64,000 nt of DNA from a virus. Positions within the stretch are counted from its first letter, which is position 1. Each line of letters opens with the position of its first letter. The position numbers were made by a program, and so were the translations under genes. The DNA is taken from positions 110,471-174,470 of the IMG/VR virus record IMGVR_UViG_3300027749_000040; one strand, 5' to 3'. The notes beneath the pieces were generated by a model. That model saw only the letters and a program-made list of their open reading frames with translations. It was not told the DNA's origin and did not search any database. This document shows positions 3,399-59,274 of the stretch, in pieces.

Positions 3399-4403
3399 AT
3401 GACAAGCATCGTTCGCATTACTAGTGGTTCTTATCGCAATGAAACAATCAAAGGTGAAGTTTTCACACTGGTTAAAGGTTATCAACTTGGAAATAAAGGT
3501 GGTTTTGTGACAGTAAAAAATGAAGGTCAGTTCCCAGGGCGCGGCCCTCAGGTTCGTGTAAACGTTGACAATCAATCAATGATTGAATTTGTGTCAGGTC
3601 GTGATAGTGTCAAAGCAGAGACACCTAAAGAAACTGAAACAGAAGCAATGGACCGTATTGCATCACGTTTTGCAGTGCTTGATGAAATGTCTAAGGCATG
3701 TATCAGTGGTGAAATTCGTGCTATGATTGTGACAGGTCCTGCAGGTATTGGTAAGTCACACGGTGTGAACATTCAAATGGAAAAAGCAAGTATGTTTGAC
3801 AGACTTGCTAGCAAAAAGGTTCGCTTTGAAGTTGTCAAAGGTGCAATGTCAGGTATTGGCTTGTTTGCTAAGTTGTACAAATTTAGTGATGCTAAAAATG
3901 TATTGGTATTTGATGATTGTGATATCTGGGAAGATCAGGATGCATTGAACGTACTAAAAGGTGCATTGGATTCAGGCAAGACACGTAGAATTTCGTGGAA
4001 CAAAGATTCACGTATTTTGCGTGAAGAAGGTATCCCTAATAGTTTCAACTTCAACGGTTCTGTAATTTTCATTACAAACAAATCGTTTGATGCAAAGAAA
4101 GCCGGCAAAATGCAACCTCACTTGGATGCATTGCAAAGTCGTTGTCACTTTTTGGACCTGACAGTTGACAGTGAGCGTGACAAAATGTTGCGTATCAAGC
4201 AAGTGCATCGGGATGCTGATGGTGGTTTGTTTGCTGAATATGATTTCACGCAAGAACAGACAGACGAAATTATGTCGTTCATCTGGGACAATCACAATAA
4301 ATTGCGTGAAGTGTCCTTGCGTATGTGTTTGAAAGTTGCAGACTTGGTTAAGATTAGTGCTAACTGGCGCGAACTTGCTAAAGCAACTTGTATGAAAGGT
4401 TAA
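3399..4403 (+). CDS. AAA-family P-loop ATPase
   Basis: Walker A GPAGIGKS, Walker B VLVFDDCD, sensor-1 IFITN, ALQSRC arginine finger; SD AAAGGA. Confidence 0.85.
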   Translation: MTSIVRITSGSYRNETIKGEVFTLVKGYQLGNKGGFVTVKNEGQFPGRGPQVRVNVDNQSMIEFVSGRDSVKAETPKETETEAMDRIASRFAVLDEMSKACISGEIRAMIVTGPAGIGKSHGVNIQMEKASMFDRLASKKVRFEVVKGAMSGIGLFAKLYKFSDAKNVLVFDDCDIWEDQDALNVLKGALDSGKTRRISWNKDSRILREEGIPNSFNFNGSVIFITNKSFDAKKAGKMQPHLDALQSRCHFLDLTVDSERDKMLRIKQVHRDADGGLFAEYDFTQEQTDEIMSFIWDNHNKLREVSLRMCLKVADLVKISANWRELAKATCMKG

Positions 4404-4474
4404 CCCCTGCAGTGTGCGTAGAGGCAGTGTCAATAAGCCCTCTTCGATAAGTTTTTTCATAGGCTCTTTCTTTC

Positions 4475-4499
4475 GGGGAACTTAGGTTCCCCTTTTTTT
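4475..4499 (+). terminator. Rho-independent terminator
   Basis: GGGGAAC-TTAG-GTTCCCC followed by T7. Confidence 0.9.
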
Positions 4500-4509
4500 G
4501 CCTATTAAT

Positions 4510-4538
4510 TTGCTTTTTGTCTAGTGTCCTGTTATACT
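4510..4538 (+). promoter_or_regulatory. sigma70-type promoter, probably leaderless
   Basis: TTGCTT-N17-TATACT with TGn; ATG 5 nt downstream. Confidence 0.65.
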
Positions 4539-11178: not shown

Positions 11179-11727
11179 ATGGATGTAATGATTGACATTG
11201 AATCACTAGACACAACACCAGACTGTGTGATTCTAACTATTGGTGCAGTATTATTTGACCCACGTGGTCATGGCATTATTGATAAAATTGAGATTCGTCC
11301 TACGATTGAGGATCAAACAGAGATTTACAATCGCAGTATCAATGATGCAACAATGGAATGGTGGGGCAAACAAAGTCCAGAAGCAATTGAAGAAGCTATG
11401 GGCGACAGAGACCGTGTGTCATACGAAAATGCAATGAATCAATTATACAAATTCTGCTGGAATCGTAGTAAGTGTGCATGGAGTAACGGTGCAAGTTTTG
11501 ATGTAGTAGTTATGGATCATGCTTGGAAACAATTTGATAAAAACACACCGTGGAACTTTTGGGACATTAGAGACACAAGAACATTGTATGATATTGCCGG
11601 CGTAAAATTAAAAGATGGTGGACATGTTACGACACACAAAGCTGTAGAAGATGCCGAAAGACAAGCAATTGTTGTGCAACAAGCGTATACTAAGTTAATT
11701 AAAGTAGGATTAATGGAGACAAAATGA
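11179..11727 (+). CDS. DEDDh 3'-5' exonuclease (Rv2179c/exonuclease VIII-like)
   Basis: MIDIES (Exo I), WSNGASFD (Exo II), RDTRT, HKAVEDA (Exo III). Confidence 0.85.
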   Translation: MDVMIDIESLDTTPDCVILTIGAVLFDPRGHGIIDKIEIRPTIEDQTEIYNRSINDATMEWWGKQSPEAIEEAMGDRDRVSYENAMNQLYKFCWNRSKCAWSNGASFDVVVMDHAWKQFDKNTPWNFWDIRDTRTLYDIAGVKLKDGGHVTTHKAVEDAERQAIVVQQAYTKLIKVGLMETK

Positions 11728-12488
11728 CAATAGGTATATTTGGAGATAGTTTTGCAGTAGTTGATAACCACAAAAATCGAAGTTGGACAGGCCTATTAGC
11801 AGAGATATTAGACGAAGGATATGTATGCTACGGTGAACCATCTACTTCTATATGGTGGTCATATGAACTTTTTTTAAAACATTATAAAAAATATGACAAG
11901 ATAGTTTTTACATACTCACATTATAGTAGGTGGAGTTATTTGCCTGAACACCTTACTAAACTATCTCTTATTAGACCTAAAGGTCATGTCGGGGGTTTTG
12001 ATTCGCACGGTGATGACTCACTAAAAAAATATGTTGATATATTACTTGAAGCTCATCCTATATTGTATTCTGAGGAGTTACAATTATTTACATATCAAAA
12101 TATCTTCAATAGTGTAAACAAATTGTGCAAAGATACAAATATAAAATTGATTAACTTAATGCCTTTTGAGCAAAGTTATGTAGATTTTCCAACAAATAAT
12201 AAATTAGTAGATTTATATATAGATATATCGGAAGCATTCGGGCCGTGCTTAACTGGTTTAGCAGATGTAAGTTTTGGTGAATTATTGGATCAACGCGGTT
12301 TAGTACATAAAGATAGTTTTAAAGGAAAAGTTTTTGATAAACGAGCATCACACCTATCATTGGATAATAATAAAGTTCTGGCATCAATTATATCAGAGAT
12401 ATTTAATTCCGAGCAAACAAGACCAAAATTGATACAGTTACAAAAAGACAATAGATTTTTTAAAGGAACATTCTTTAATGAGAATTGA
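11724..12488 (+). CDS. SGNH-like hypothetical protein
   Basis: N-terminal IGIFGDSF...SW, C-terminal SHLS..NN..LA; AT-rich. Confidence 0.55.
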   Translation: MTIGIFGDSFAVVDNHKNRSWTGLLAEILDEGYVCYGEPSTSIWWSYELFLKHYKKYDKIVFTYSHYSRWSYLPEHLTKLSLIRPKGHVGGFDSHGDDSLKKYVDILLEAHPILYSEELQLFTYQNIFNSVNKLCKDTNIKLINLMPFEQSYVDFPTNNKLVDLYIDISEAFGPCLTGLADVSFGELLDQRGLVHKDSFKGKVFDKRASHLSLDNNKVLASIISEIFNSEQTRPKLIQLQKDNRFFKGTFFNEN

Positions 12489-13059
12489 TTCAGACATTGA
12501 CATAGATTTTGGAGATAGAGATAAACTACTGTCTCTAATCAAACATACACCTGCATCAATGCGTAATATCACTCCTATTCGTAGACACAATACTGGTGTC
12601 TACATAACAGATATCCCATATGATCCTGTTAATAATATGTCAGCACTACATTATGAAGACGCAGAAAAACGTGGATATTTCAAACTAGACTTGTTGAATG
12701 TGCATGTGTATTCACAGGTTCGTGATGAAACACATTTAGTTGAATTGATGTATGAACCAAATTGGTCTAAACTAAATGATAGAGTATTTGTTGAGAAATT
12801 AATTCACCTATCAAATCACTATCAAAGTATTCAGAAGATGACTGAGCCAATTGATAGTATCCCTAGATTAGCAATGTTTTTAGCATTGATTCGTCCTGCT
12901 AAAAAGCATTTAATTGGTAAGAGTTGGAAAGAAGTGAGTCAAACTATATGGGACCGTGAGAATGACGGATATAGTTTCAAAAAGAGTCATGCTATAGCTT
13001 ATGCACAGTTAGTCGTTGTACATATGAATTTACTTACAACATCCGTTTCACAAGCGTAA
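12478..13059 (+). CDS. dnaE: Miniature DNA polymerase III alpha (DnaE) C-half: catalytic palm plus fingers remnants
   Basis: SDIDIDF (=PDFDVDF), RHNTGVYI (=KHAGGVVI), GYFKLDLL (=GLVKFDFL), LALIRPA (=VALFRPG), GYSFKKSHAIAYA (=GYGFNKSHSAAYA). Confidence 0.85.
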   Translation: MRIDSDIDIDFGDRDKLLSLIKHTPASMRNITPIRRHNTGVYITDIPYDPVNNMSALHYEDAEKRGYFKLDLLNVHVYSQVRDETHLVELMYEPNWSKLNDRVFVEKLIHLSNHYQSIQKMTEPIDSIPRLAMFLALIRPAKKHLIGKSWKEVSQTIWDRENDGYSFKKSHAIAYAQLVVVHMNLLTTSVSQA

Positions 13060-13414
13060 TACTACGGCGTTTTGTCCTACGTTTGTGTAGTTCATTTATG
13101 CTACAAGCAGGGCCATGCACGATAGTTAGACTTTTATTGTGAAAAGTTCGTATATATGGCTTGAATATGATCCATTCATCTTTAAGGAATAAATTAATAG
13201 GAATCAATCTGTTAGATTCCCACCACCATATATCACCTAATTCTAAGAATTTCTCTTTAGCCATTGGGTCGATTATAGCACCATAATCGTAAATAGTAGT
13301 GACAACATCATCTCTATTCTGTACAATCCCCACATAATCTTGATTAGCGTAGGAGCACACGGTGATGAAGGGGTGGTTTTCTGTTAGTTTTGTGAAAAAT
13401 TCGTTAGGTAACAT
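13034..13414 (-). CDS. Hypothetical protein
   Basis: ATG 13414 (MLPNEFF) downstream of a minus-strand GATAAATA; basic C-terminus. Confidence 0.7.
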   Translation of the reverse strand: MLPNEFFTKLTENHPFITVCSYANQDYVGIVQNRDDVVTTIYDYGAIIDPMAKEKFLELGDIWWWESNRLIPINLFLKDEWIIFKPYIRTFHNKSLTIVHGPACSINELHKRRTKRRSITLVKRML

Positions 13415-13434
13415 TGTTGTTCTTATGACCGAAA

Positions 13435-13475
13435 TATTTATCATCGGGTAGCCTGGCAATATATTTTGATAAATA
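13435..13475. promoter_or_regulatory. Divergent pair of T4-late-type promoters
   Basis: GATAAATA on minus (13435-13442) and on plus (13468-13475, 5 nt before ATG 13481). Confidence 0.7.
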
Positions 13476-16742: not shown

Positions 16743-16997
16743 ATGCAAAAACAAACTCGCAGCCTGTTGGAAGAATTAGAGTCAATCGGTAATAACCGTG
16801 ACACCAGTCACATTATTGAGAGCCGAGGTCATAACATCATTACCAGTGCAATTAATTTACTAGAAATGATTAACAGGCATTATACGCCTGTTCAGGCTGA
16901 AATTTTAGAGCGTAAGCTACTAAGTGCTATAAAAAATAAAGACCAGAGTAAATTTGCAAAATCACTAAAAAAGAATAGCAACAATGAGCCTATCTGA
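16743..16997 (+). CDS. Hypothetical protein
   Basis: 84-aa helical ORF after a late promoter. Confidence 0.7.
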   Translation: MQKQTRSLLEELESIGNNRDTSHIIESRGHNIITSAINLLEMINRHYTPVQAEILERKLLSAIKNKDQSKFAKSLKKNSNNEPI

Positions 16998-18132
16998 GTC
17001 CCTGTCGATATTAAAGTCTAAAATTGATAAATTTTCCATTAAAGAGGCTAAGGGACATTTAGACCATCCTGAGGATTTAATATTTTTAGACGGCACTCAA
17101 GGTGCTAACCGTGCTGTTCAAGCAAGCGTAGACACAGTTAAAAATCCAGCAACAGTCACAATTAAGTGGGATGGATATCCTGCATTGATTTTTGGGCGTG
17201 GTACAAATGGCAAGTTCAGTATTATGGACAAACATATGTTCAATAAAAAAGACTTATCAGGTCGTCAAGTATTCAGCCCCGAACAATTTGTTGAATATGA
17301 TAGAGCCCGAGGAGTTGACCGTAGTGGATTACATCAATTAATTGCCGAAATTTGGCCAGGACTAGAAAAGTCAGATAGAAGCAAAGGTTATTACTGGGGA
17401 GACTTACTATTCAGTCAACCGTTGCAAGAACAAAACGGTATGTATAAGTTCAAAGCTAATCCCAATGGTATTGCATACACAGTTGAGGCAAACAGTGAAG
17501 TAGGACAGTTATTTAAAGGAAAACAAGCCGCTATTGTGGTACACCAGTTTATTCCTCCAAATGCCGCTACAACAGATGAAGCCACACCATTGGACGGTGG
17601 CATTGGTAGTTTGAAAAATAACAGTAATGTAGCTATTGTTCCTGCAAAAATGCCCATCACTCCTAAATTAAAGATAAGCAGTAAATTAGTTAACCAAGCA
17701 CAATCTGATATTAAAAAGTATGGTCCTGCTGTGGATCAATTGTTAAATACAGCTCCGCAAGCCGCAACAACATTTCGTGGATTGTTTACTACCTATATCA
17801 ATAAGAAAATTGTTGCAGGTGATTTGAATAATTTAGTAGATGGATTTATGGAATACTTTAATAGTCGTCCAATGACTGATGCTATGAAAACAAAGTTGAC
17901 TCAGCACCTAGAAGCTAATAAAGCAGGATTAGTTGGAGCATTCACTATATGGGTTAGTTTATATCAATTGAAAATGGCTATCGTAGACCAACTCAATAAA
18001 GCCGCAGAAGCAAGTCCTGTGAAGGGCTATCTAGATGACGGAACACAGACTCAAGAAGGTTTTGTCAGTAACGGACTCAAATTTGTAGATAGAATGGGCT
18101 TCAGCCGTCAGAATTTGGCTGGAAGAACCTAA
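16984..18132 (+). CDS. DUF6267-like protein, ATP-dependent ligase/nucleotidyltransferase-like
   Basis: GHLDHPED, TIKWDG (motif I KxDG), GDLLF, EGFV, LKFVDR..FSRQN. Confidence 0.6.
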   Translation: MSLSESLSILKSKIDKFSIKEAKGHLDHPEDLIFLDGTQGANRAVQASVDTVKNPATVTIKWDGYPALIFGRGTNGKFSIMDKHMFNKKDLSGRQVFSPEQFVEYDRARGVDRSGLHQLIAEIWPGLEKSDRSKGYYWGDLLFSQPLQEQNGMYKFKANPNGIAYTVEANSEVGQLFKGKQAAIVVHQFIPPNAATTDEATPLDGGIGSLKNNSNVAIVPAKMPITPKLKISSKLVNQAQSDIKKYGPAVDQLLNTAPQAATTFRGLFTTYINKKIVAGDLNNLVDGFMEYFNSRPMTDAMKTKLTQHLEANKAGLVGAFTIWVSLYQLKMAIVDQLNKAAEASPVKGYLDDGTQTQEGFVSNGLKFVDRMGFSRQNLAGRT

Positions 18133-56167: not shown

Positions 56168-56196
56168 TTGACTTCCCTTGTTAAATAGTGTATCAT
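56168..56196 (+). promoter_or_regulatory. sigma70-type promoter, probably leaderless
   Basis: TTGACT-N17-TATCAT; ATG 56203 is 6 nt downstream. Confidence 0.7.
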
Positions 56197-56202
56197 TACA
56201 CA

Positions 56203-56709
56203 ATGCGAACTGATATCTATGGTCAACAAATCTACAATGAAATGGAACTATGTCTGCTATATTTGCAGGATCCTACACGTATCATTAAACGTGCATTGGT
56301 AGAGAATGAAATCAAATTTGACGAAGTACTTCAATTAGAAAATACTCCTGAACTTATTCAATACAATAGGTTAGACATGACAATAGAACAGTTTGACAAT
56401 CAAATGCAATCAAACTGGTTAATGCCTGAACAATACAAAACGATGGACATTGCACAATATGTGTTGAATCAATGTCAGGGAGAAGCAGAATTACAACGAG
56501 CAGGAGAAGAATTAATACTGTTCCAAGAACGAGATATGTTTGTGTTATTGCGTTATTTAAAATATCTAGTTGACACTATGCGTGAAAATAATATACTATG
56601 GGGTGTCGGTAGAGGGTCAAGTGTAGCAAGTTTTGTATTGTTTTTGCTTGGAATTCACCGCATAAATAGTTGTTACTATGACTTATCTATAGATGAGTTT
56701 TTAAAATAA
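56203..56709 (+). CDS. dnaE: Miniature DNA polymerase III alpha (DnaE) N-half: first part of the palm
   Basis: QRAGEELILF...LVDTMRENNILWGVGRGSSVASFVLFLLGIHRINSCYYDLSIDEFLK aligns without gaps to DnaE ERLETEL...GPGRGSGAGSLVAYALKIT.LDP...LLFERFL. Confidence 0.85.
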   Translation: MRTDIYGQQIYNEMELCLLYLQDPTRIIKRALVENEIKFDEVLQLENTPELIQYNRLDMTIEQFDNQMQSNWLMPEQYKTMDIAQYVLNQCQGEAELQRAGEELILFQERDMFVLLRYLKYLVDTMRENNILWGVGRGSSVASFVLFLLGIHRINSCYYDLSIDEFLK

Positions 56710-56719
56710 GGAAAATATT

Positions 56720-57079
56720 ATGAAAAGTTACAGATCAGCAATGGGAAAGAATGTAGATATGGGTGCTCTATTAGCCAAAAATGAAAATACTAGGGCAGTA
56801 GGCAACATGAAAGTGAATGCACGTGGAGACACAATTGATTCACTAGGCAGGGTTACCAGACCAGTTACTGCAAAAGTAAATCAATCGTATGCTAATACAG
56901 TTGGAAATAAATCGGCAAATGCAGTGAGAAATAAACCAACACCTTCTACCCCCATAATATCTGATCCAGAAATTAAAGAAGAACTTACTACAGCAGAATT
57001 AGAATTAGAAGAATCATTTGAAGATGATTTAGAAATTGAAAAGATTAAAGCAGAAGAACTTAGCAAAGGTAAAAAATGA
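56720..57079 (+). CDS. Hypothetical protein
   Basis: SD AAGGA; AVGNMKVNARGD motif; acidic tail. Confidence 0.75.
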   Translation: MKSYRSAMGKNVDMGALLAKNENTRAVGNMKVNARGDTIDSLGRVTRPVTAKVNQSYANTVGNKSANAVRNKPTPSTPIISDPEIKEELTTAELELEESFEDDLEIEKIKAEELSKGKK

Positions 57080-57453
57080 GCGATTACTCAACGCCAGCGT
57101 TCAGTCCCACTAAAGTAGATAAACTAACATTTTTGCACAAAGATATTATTGTGTCAGAAATGAGTTTTGACCAGCGTATCACAGCAGGTGGTATTATTCT
57201 ATTAGACGATGACAAGAAAAGTTCTGGTATTCGCCCTCGTTGGGCAAAGATTTATGGGTTAGGACCCGATGTAGTAGATCCTGAACTACAGATTGGTAAA
57301 TACATTCTTATAAGTCACGGTCGTTGGACTCGTGGTATCACTGTAGAAACTCCATTGGGTGAAGAAACATTGCGTAAAGTTGACGTTAATGATATACTAC
57401 TGATATCAGATGAACCTATGGAAGATGAAACAATGAGTGATAAGGTGTATTAA
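57076..57453 (+). CDS. groES: Co-chaperonin GroES-like (functional analogue of T4 gp31)
   Basis: RITAGGIIL mobile loop, KIYGLGP, LQIGKYIL, NDILLI. Confidence 0.75.
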   Translation: MSDYSTPAFSPTKVDKLTFLHKDIIVSEMSFDQRITAGGIILLDDDKKSSGIRPRWAKIYGLGPDVVDPELQIGKYILISHGRWTRGITVETPLGEETLRKVDVNDILLISDEPMEDETMSDKVY

Positions 57454-58070: not shown

Positions 58071-58351
58071 TAAACTGGATTAGACAAAAACTACACAACT
58101 TTATATTTCCACAAGACATTGCAGAGACAAGACCCTCAGCAAAGAACAGTCTTATTAGTCGAGGTAGATCACTTGACAGCAGAGGTATGAGCTTTACTAT
58201 TCACCAAGCTAATGGTGGTTATGTATTAGAGTATTCAACGTATAATGAAAAAACTGATAGGCACGATAATGCATTGCACATTATTAATTCTGATCAAGAC
58301 TTGGGTCAGGGTATCGCACACGTTATTACACTTGAAATGTTAAGAAAATGA
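58067..58351 (+). CDS. Hypothetical protein
   Basis: 94 aa; FTIHQANGGYVLE. Confidence 0.75.
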   Translation: MINWIRQKLHNFIFPQDIAETRPSAKNSLISRGRSLDSRGMSFTIHQANGGYVLEYSTYNEKTDRHDNALHIINSDQDLGQGIAHVITLEMLRK

Positions 58352-59274
58352 AAAATCAACTTTGGGTAGAAAAGTATCGTCCTAACTCTATCAGTGAATA
58401 TGTGTTTACTGATGGACGTGTCAAATCACAAGCAGAACAATGGGTCAAAGATGGTATTATCCCTCACTTGTTGTTCAGCGGTGACCCCGGTACAGGTAAA
58501 ACAACACTTGCTAAAGTATTAATCAAAGAACTTGGTGTGGAAGATTATGATGTAATGGTCATCAACGCAAGTCGTGAACGTCAAATTGAATTGGTTCGTG
58601 ACAAACTATTGTCATTTGCACAGACATTGCCTTTTGGTAAGTTCAAAGTTGTGTTGCTAGATGAAGCAGATTCATTGCCTCACTTGACACAAGCCGCACT
58701 GCGTACTGATATGGAAACATACTCAGACACAGTTCGATTCATTTTGACTTGTAACTATCCTGAGAAAATCATTCCAGCATTGCGTGAAAGTCGCTGTCAC
58801 AAGATTCATATTAGCAAGCCAGATCACACTGACTTTACAGCACGTGCGGCAACTGTGTTGTTGACTGAAAACATTGAATTTGATCTGGATATACTAGACA
58901 ACTATGTTCGTGCTTGCTATCCAGACTTGCGTAAAGTATTAAATCAACTACAAGTTAATTGTATTGATGGTAAACTACAGCCAGCACAAACAGGTGGTAC
59001 AGATGAAAATGAACTATTGCTTGAAGCAGTTCAATTGTTTAAAGCAGGTAAGATTCTTGATGGTCGTCAACAACTGATGCAGTATATCTCTATGTATCCA
59101 TCACATGTAGAAGATTGCTACAAGTGGATGTACCAAAACTTGGATCTGTGGGGCAAGGATCAAGAAAAGAAGGACGCAAGTATCATTATCATTCGTAATG
59201 GTCTAGCACAACTGCCACTAGTTGGGATAGCTGAGATTTCATTGGCAGCAACATTAGTAGAGTTAACAACTTAA
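58348..59274 (+). CDS. Clamp loader ATPase subunit (T4 gp44/RFC-like)
   Basis: LWVEKYRP, PHLLFSGDPGTGKTT, INAS, LLDEAD, FILTCNY, SRC. Confidence 0.92.
   Translation: MKNQLWVEKYRPNSISEYVFTDGRVKSQAEQWVKDGIIPHLLFSGDPGTGKTTLAKVLIKELGVEDYDVMVINASRERQIELVRDKLLSFAQTLPFGKFKVVLLDEADSLPHLTQAALRTDMETYSDTVRFILTCNYPEKIIPALRESRCHKIHISKPDHTDFTARAATVLLTENIEFDLDILDNYVRACYPDLRKVLNQLQVNCIDGKLQPAQTGGTDENELLLEAVQLFKAGKILDGRQQLMQYISMYPSHVEDCYKWMYQNLDLWGKDQEKKDASIIIIRNGLAQLPLVGIAEISLAATLVELTT

Follow-up and report, generated by a model that had tools for sequence, protein, structure and literature searches.

Two genes that lie 43.7 kb apart in the uncultivated phage record IMG/VR IMGVR_UViG_3300027749_000040 appear to encode the two halves of a split, minimal family-C DNA polymerase (that is, a polymerase of the DnaE/PolC type). 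The record is 174 kb long and represents approximately half a genome; its last 64 kb (64,000 nucleotides) is the stretch that was analysed, hereafter the window. The upstream gene (12478..13059, + strand), an intact open reading frame (ORF) of 193 residues belonging to phrog_11778, encodes the C-terminal half of the enzyme (C-half), and the downstream gene (56203..56709, + strand), which yields 168 residues from its ATG, encodes the N-terminal half (N-half). On balance, we consider it probable that the halves associate without splicing, that the assembled enzyme adds deoxynucleoside triphosphates (dNTPs) in a templated manner and that it acts as an accessory polymerase beside a family-B enzyme.

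Split, minimal Pol III alpha proteins have been described by comparative genomics in group 2.2 (Rak2/PA5oct-like) jumbo phages, in which the pieces correspond to the NTP-binding and the Mg2+-/template-binding subdomains, lack other Pol III domains and occur alongside a family-B polymerase (Iyer et al. 2021, Viruses 13:63). The gene pair of the window is a new uncultivated member of this family, the minimal and split nature of which is already published; our additions are a residue map onto the Escherichia coli ternary complex, natural fusions of the two halves and a recurrent link between the N-half and a small downstream protein. With the described members (PHROGs 11778 and 11127; PA5oct gp264/gp196, RaK2 gp411 and the Phosso 'DnaE-like DNA polymerase III alpha'), the window shares the two-gene architecture, the split point, the gene neighbourhoods and, as in PA5oct, a spacing of approximately 44 kb, at 36–48% identity to cultured members. 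As in that family, the C-terminal unit measures approximately 190–200 residues, the gene for the N-terminal unit is distant and other Pol III alpha domains are absent (from what is, in this case, about half a genome). We see no difference in architecture; an overlapping exonuclease gene and 254-residue ORF directly 5' of the C-half are found in this lineage and not in the four cultured phages inspected. By tblastn, the C-half occurs in 96 phage genomes at 36–48% identity, nearly all of them jumbo myoviruses (including PA5oct-like and RaK2-like phages, Atu_ph07, Phosso, SCTP-2, CBB and GAP32), and GenBank already labels members 'DNA polymerase' or DnaE-like. Clustering of the metagenomic family members gives at least 7981 clusters at the 90% identity level and 412 at the 50% level, which places the family among the most abundant uncharacterised polymerase-like proteins of environmental phages; its approximately 361 residues in two chains would mark a lower size limit for the family-C polymerase fold.

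Correspondence of the two genes to DnaE

Sequence motifs of the C-half follow the order of those in DnaE: DIDIDF (residues 6–11), HNTGVY (37–42, only 25 residues after DIDIDF), KLDLL (69–73), LALIRP (135–140) and FKKSHAIAYA (167–176), with the C terminus 17 residues further on. This order, the short spacing and the early end of the protein had been noted in a first-pass annotation made from the DNA letters, and all are borne out by the sequence. Pfam recognises no family in the C-half and a single-sequence search of the PDB returned nothing relevant; in PHROGs, residues 5–188 match positions 7–193 of the 197-position 'DNA polymerase' profile phrog_11778 (E = 7.6e-58). A profile built from 85 diverse homologs (30–56% identical to the window protein), the alignment that underlies all residue counts given below for the C-half, matches the Pol III alpha subunits of E. 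coli, Thermus and Mycobacterium tuberculosis in the PDB (E = 2e-5 to 4e-4). In the profile alignment, D6, D8 and D10 correspond to E. coli D401, D403 and D405, H37 to H511, K69 and D71 to K553 and D555, R139-P140 to R639-P640 and H171 to H760; moreover, G164-Y165-S166-F167-K168-K169-S170-H171 reproduces G753-Y754-G755-F756-N757-K758-S759-H760 with identical spacing. These positions are nearly invariant: D6, D8 and H171 are each kept in 84 of 85 homologs, D10 and H37 in 83, and K69, D71 and R139-P140 in all 85, and position 169 is Lys or Arg in 83. The first-pass annotation was thus right that all three catalytic aspartates (D6, D8 and D71) are retained, and their conservation holds across the homologs.

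The same alignment served as input for an AlphaFold2 model of the C-half that reached a mean predicted local distance difference test score (pLDDT) of 95.1 and a predicted template modelling score of 0.88. A Foldseek search with this model ranked ten Pol III alpha structures first, at weak E values (0.012–0.28). On VIA re-alignment, residues 1–193 matched 15 family-C polymerase entries at Z = 6.1–9.6, and the next unrelated chain scored Z = 3.5; in most entries 183–190 of the 193 residues were aligned (177 for 2HQA). The matches include Thermus 3E0D (Z = 9.6, target residues 458–841), Geobacillus PolC 3F2B (Z = 9.6, 968–1299), M. tuberculosis 5LEW (Z = 9.4, 416–811) and E. coli 2HNH (Z = 8.4, 397–784). 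The superposition on E. coli or Taq-type DnaE that had been proposed as a check therefore gives a match along the full length of the C-half.

The missing N-terminal part of the palm is encoded downstream. A Pfam DNA_pol3_alpha search of the phage record first located a second piece at 56482–56709, which belongs to the N-half gene; the N-half matches PF07733 at 35.9–36.2 bits (cut-off, 23.9) and phrog_11127 at E = 6.6e-39. Its last approximately 95 residues correspond to E. coli DnaE 279–393 (the rigid N-terminal part of the palm, which bears the nucleotide-binding motif GRGS), and its first approximately 70 residues are conserved within the family without a recognised fold or known match. GVGRGSS, invariant among N-halves, aligns with the E. 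coli GS motif R362-G363-S364, and the end of the protein, I-D-E-F-L-K, with F-E-R390-F-L-N393, the Arg of ERFL (R390) being replaced by an invariant Glu. A profile of fused proteins (see below) and N-halves aligns colinearly with E. coli DnaE (2HNH) 316–419, across the break. The earlier description of an N-half that lacks a PHP domain and in which the Arg of ERFL is replaced (DEFL) holds on both counts, but this half is a gene of its own (56203–56709). The suggestion that the C-half borrows missing functions from other small ORFs likewise proved correct in that the GRGS half of the palm comes from a gene at a distance of 43.7 kb.

The two proteins tile E. coli DnaE at 393|396, the N-half stopping at N393 and the C-half starting at approximately R396. 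In all 80 IMG/VR relatives, the N-half ends in [DE]EF[LI]K followed by TAA, TAG or TGA, and on this sequence pattern we take its C terminus to be a true terminus rather than a recoding site. An intein at the junction was considered and ruled out, as the halves abut without extra residues. Cyanobacterial split DnaE is likewise a family-C polymerase produced from two distant genes, but its parts are joined by a split intein; with neither intein nor additional sequence at the junction, the phage halves must associate non-covalently. Most IMG/VR relatives start the N-half at the ATG equivalent to 56203. A sigma-70-like promoter match (TTGACT-17-TATCAT; 56168..56196, + strand; 10 of 12 consensus matches, as a pattern match only) ends 6 nucleotides before this ATG, and the GTG at 56188 chosen by the ORF finder falls inside it; the putative promoter would make that GTG an improbable start and the mRNA nearly leaderless. 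The upstream ORF of 254 codons does not stop until 11 nucleotides into the C-half gene, the ATG of which is preceded by an AGGA at a distance of 11 nucleotides. The small size of the two proteins, their split state and the blindness of Pfam to the C-half could be read as signs that a captured dnaE has decayed or survives as a non-catalytic remnant. We give this almost no credence: thousands of sequences in 412 clusters at 50% identity show next to no change at any catalytic residue, the proteins begin and end at precise, conserved positions, and no examined locus has a broken ORF.

Taken together, the two genes cover E. coli DnaE 279–784 minus three excisions (that is, the thumb, the index finger and everything past approximately 784). 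The C-half model spans E. coli 397–784 with 187 aligned residues, so approximately 200 residues are deleted within this span. At the thumb, 26 residues separate D10 from H37, versus 105 between E. coli D405 and H511. The thumb had been reported as missing altogether, which is correct for its helical body; in the model, however, a short helix and a beta-hairpin (strands 24–28 and 35–42) remain, the hairpin corresponding to the thumb base and bearing its His. The index finger is cut from approximately 110 to approximately 23 residues, with two short helices left in the model, and only some 12 residues lead from P140 to residue 152, versus approximately 100 in E. coli (640–740). Past approximately 784 nothing is left, and the ring and little fingers, the clamp-binding/HhH, the OB and the tau-binding modules are all gone; PHP (PF02811) has no match in either half. 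The reported loss of the PHP, clamp-binding and OB regions is in agreement with this. The lost parts were not recovered as separate pieces: PHP (PF02811), DNA_pol3_finger (PF17657) and HHH_6 found no match in the phage record or in relatives rated 76–100% complete, which were scanned for other Pol III alpha domains, and no thumb piece was found elsewhere (the OB fold was not searched).

Compared with DnaE and PolC (2HNH/5FKW, 3E0D and 3F2B), the phage enzyme therefore retains the same Pol-beta-like palm, the GS motif, the D401/D403/D555 triad, K553, H511, the middle-finger RP loop and the Y754...H760 element, with order and fold unchanged. It differs in having 361 residues in two chains where bacterial DnaE has approximately 1160 in one, in lacking the PHP, helical thumb, ring and little finger, clamp-binding, OB and tau parts, in the reduction of the index finger to approximately 23 residues and in the Glu at R390. 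NCBIfam DnaE models give at most 54 bits for the fused form, against cut-offs of 434–1806.

Natural fusions and pairing of the halves

Several observations indicate that the halves belong together. In the phage collection, the organism tallies for the two halves are nearly identical (for example, Escherichia 34/34 and Pseudomonas 11/11). The PA5oct genes for the C-half (gp264) and the N-half (gp196) have the order and orientation of the window, with gp264 upstream at a distance of 43.6 kb. In addition, three natural proteins from ENA and Logan assemblies (P0183, P0274 and P0275; 375–376 residues, mutually 78–81% identical) carry the N-half, a 10-residue linker and the C-half in a single chain. 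These are colinear with DnaE across the junction, which the Pfam family DNA_pol3_alpha also crosses (residues 97–207 versus profile positions 12–121). We suggest that such rare natural fusions support both halves working as one enzyme.

In a maximum-likelihood tree of C-halves (midpoint-rooted, without an outgroup), the fused trio forms a tip clade with support 1.0 that is nested within clades of stand-alone C-halves (supports 0.98, 0.91 and 0.96), and, judged from these sequences, the fusion looks secondary. A structural model of the fused protein was computed from an alignment of 3 fused proteins, 9 C-halves and 32 N-halves (A8); combined alignments with more than approximately 9 C-halves were discarded because the N-halves were misplaced onto C-half columns. 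Its confident helices map as expected, residues 85–180 onto E. coli 279–396 and residues 261–375 onto 561–773; the overall quality of this model is taken up below.

One relative (IMGVR_UViG_3300023174_000038; 348.7 kb, rated 100% complete) seemed to carry an N-half only. Its contig breaks off within dnaB, before reaching the place of the C-half a few kb further on, so this genome is no exception to the pairing of the halves. Although rated 100% complete, the record is without the primase-to-C-half block and is hence not fully complete. Two proteins of unusual layout were also seen, either of which may be a gene-calling or assembly artefact: P0123 (360 residues) has an approximately 190-residue N-terminal extension before an N-half, and P0211 (233 residues) joins the first approximately 100 C-half residues to an unrelated C-terminal part. 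In Atu_ph07 (NC_042013), the start annotated for the C-half gp074 ('DNA polymerase', 164 residues; locus 3938–4516) lies 3' of PDIDIDF; upstream of it, the frame stays open through the catalytic aspartates, and the deposited start is therefore probably too late.

Catalysis, templating and nucleotide use

The functional assignment of these residues follows one paper (PMC8485763) and one preprint (10.64898/2026.06.29.735100) on E. coli DnaE. The active-site carboxylates of Pol III alpha are provided by D401, D403 and D555; H760, which is invariant, is the presumptive steric gate against ribonucleotides (PMC8485763). In the ternary complex, R362/G363/S364, D401/D403 and Y754/F756/N757/H760 lie within 4 Å of the dNTP, Y754 stacking on the incoming base, and R639/P640/G641/G753 lie within 4 Å of the templating nucleotide; K553 is salt-bridged to the 3' phosphate of the primer (K553A is inactive) and H511 contacts primer position -2 (10.64898/2026.06.29.735100). 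Palm residues 271–393 behave as a rigid unit, and the part with D401/D403 moves on DNA binding (10.64898/2026.06.29.735100). The phage split falls exactly at the boundary between this rigid unit and the DNA-responsive moving part.

As the alignments and fold matches show, the N-half contributes the first palm strand and the helices that bear GRGS, the motif by which the incoming triphosphate is held, and the C-half the strand with the metal-binding aspartates D6 and D8. The C-half also provides a short hairpin, the H37 of which contacts the primer, the small palm with K69 and D71, the middle-finger loop R139-P140 on the templating base, and Y165...K169-S170-H171, an element that keeps ribonucleotides out and stacks on the incoming base. 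The two proteins could then join non-covalently into one Pol-beta-like active site that performs template-directed dNTP addition.

The first-pass annotation had also raised a template-independent or non-DNA-polymerase nucleotidyltransferase (for example, one acting in end-tailing, priming, nucleotide signalling or DNA modification). In keeping with such a role, Pol-beta-like folds support these chemistries in other families, R390 and the triphosphate-binding residues of the index finger are lost, and the parts that grip the duplex are gone. However, the R139-P140 contact to the templating base is invariant (85/85), the position of the base-stacking Y754 is occupied by Tyr in 61 and by Phe in 5 of the 85 homologs, and the steric-gate His is conserved (H171, 84/85). 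All structural matches above Z = 3.5 are to family-C polymerases and a PADLOC search found no defence or signalling family, although an activity of this kind may have arisen by convergence. As the residues for the templating base, base stacking and the steric gate are conserved, the sequences favour a template-directed, dNTP-specific polymerase over untemplated tailing, RNA priming or nucleotide signalling, and we regard a nucleotidyltransferase of this other kind as highly improbable.

Probable role beside a family-B polymerase and gene neighbourhood

Because it is without a helical thumb, a closing index finger, ring and little fingers and clamp, OB and tau modules, the assembled enzyme should be distributive on its own and make only short products. 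ORFs for a family-B polymerase of 894–917 residues are present in four of five related records, and a complete enzyme of this type makes it unlikely that the split enzyme alone is the processive replicase. The doubt of the first-pass annotation on this point was hence well placed, given the loss of the DNA- and clamp-gripping parts. We suggest that the split enzyme probably serves the phage replisome as an accessory polymerase, in company with a clamp-bound family-B polymerase; candidate tasks are to lengthen, by a short stretch, the primers of the adjacent primase-helicase or to fill short gaps. An accessory role of low processivity is likely; Iyer et al. 2021 (Viruses 13:63) likewise read the enzyme as an accessory polymerase, and the short products and candidate tasks are our addition. 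Knowledge of its function would explain why a whole group of giant phages keeps a bacterial-type polymerase core beside a T4-like one and would also reveal how much of DnaE templated synthesis requires.

Several points weigh against this scenario. The AlphaFold model of the fused protein is poor (pLDDT of 64.5, with the palm core below 50), and no family-B polymerase was found in the half-complete record to which the window belongs. R390 lies within 4 Å of the dNTP in E. coli, and R390A lowers efficiency 27-fold (10.64898/2026.06.29.735100); all N-halves have Glu at this position. Index-finger residues R709, K714 and K715 of E. coli have no aligned counterpart in the phage enzyme either, so triphosphate binding must differ and the substrate could differ too. 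The Lys found at the N757 position in 78 of 85 homologs, and K142 after the RP loop (77 of 85), may compensate for the lost triphosphate contacts. Our literature search found no biochemical or genetic study of any family member. Finally, gene order is conserved across the whole phage group, and proximity to the primase or the clamp loader, described next, is consequently weak evidence of function.

Both halves lie close to replication genes, and primase, DnaB and clamp loader are all within the window. The C-half, 1.2 kb upstream of primase and DnaB, is followed by a convergent 141-residue ORF, a structural protein, primase and DnaB, an order that recurs in Phosso, PA5oct, RaK2 and Atu_ph07. 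The N-half, 1.6 kb upstream of the clamp loader (58348–59274), is followed by a 119-residue ORF, a GroES-like gene and the clamp loader. The 119-residue protein (phrog_14844; 56720..57079, + strand) begins 10 nucleotides after the N-half stop. It directly follows the N-half in 80 of 80 IMG/VR loci; in PA5oct, gp196 is likewise followed by gp195, which is 39% identical to it over residues 5–58. The metagenomic proteins P0121 and P0122 (383 and 400 residues) carry the 119-residue protein as an in-frame fusion with the N-half; the window has the two ORFs in different frames, separated by a TAA stop and 10 nucleotides. Conservation out to PA5oct gp195 is limited to its first approximately 55 residues, the tail being acidic and lysine-rich, and searches for a family or fold (including an ESM Atlas look-up) gave no lead. 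As it always follows the N-half and is sometimes fused to it, this protein is a candidate third subunit or partner. The 141-residue ORF (phrog_11637, unknown function; 13034–13459, - strand) is convergent with the C-half and overlaps its 3' end by 26 nucleotides; the arrangement is the same in Phosso, PA5oct, RaK2 and Atu_ph07 (36–46% identity), and Pfam, PADLOC and the ESM Atlas gave no lead.

These small proteins bear on two further scenarios. In the first, the split enzyme is a true replicase for one strand, with processivity supplied by the clamp or by the 119- or 141-residue protein in place of the thumb and clamp-binding domains. In favour of this, every phage of the group has the family, which is also very abundant (at least 7981 clusters at 90% identity), the N-half is always followed by the 119-residue protein and, in P0121 and P0122, joined to it, the phrog_11637 gene always abuts the C-half, and B. 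subtilis has two polymerases at its fork. Yet neither small protein contains a recognised DNA-binding or clamp-binding motif and the group retains a full T4-like family-B polymerase with clamp and loader, and we hold a one-strand replicase to be quite unlikely. In the second, the N-half, the C-half and the 119-residue protein form a three-part holoenzyme that would be the smallest templated family-C polymerase. Being split at the palm hinge, such an enzyme could allow the phage to control polymerase activity by assembly, and its invariant Glu for R390 and its Lys for N757 would set its nucleotide binding apart from that of every cellular DnaE. This is a speculative and rather unlikely proposal; if true, it could offer a model of a primordial or extremely reduced C-family polymerase.

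Further genes in the C-half block bear on a possible role in DNA repair. An Rv2179c-like DEDD 3'-5' exonuclease (11179–11727; PF16473, E = 1.8e-33), a 254-residue ORF (11724–12488; no family match) and the C-half form a chain in which each gene overlaps the next (by 4 and 11 nucleotides), as if translationally coupled. Just after DnaB lies a 382-residue DUF6267 protein (16984–18132, + strand; E = 1.2e-36), in which a K-W-D-G stretch resembles the KxDG nucleotidyl-transfer motif of ligases and capping enzymes; from this motif, it may be a ligase-like enzyme of the replication block. The split enzyme could be imagined as a dedicated repair or damage-tolerance polymerase, analogous to DnaE2 or to very small Pol X gap-fillers, rather than as part of the replisome. 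A minimal enzyme without processivity modules, a stand-alone exonuclease and a ligase-like gene in the same block are consistent with this alternative, which is also listed by Iyer et al. 2021 (Viruses 13:63), and the reduced index finger would suggest looser nucleotide selection. On the other hand, repair-specific partners such as ImuA/ImuB-like genes were not seen, the exonuclease was not found within 4–6 kb upstream of the C-half in PA5oct, Phosso, RaK2 and Atu_ph07, and sequence data cannot separate repair from primer extension or gap filling at the fork. We therefore hold a repair polymerase to be possible, although unlikely, beside the favoured accessory polymerase of the replisome. The remaining gene of the N-half block encodes a GroES-like co-chaperonin of 125 residues (phrog_931; 57076–57453, + strand), which is named 'chaperonin' in PA5oct.

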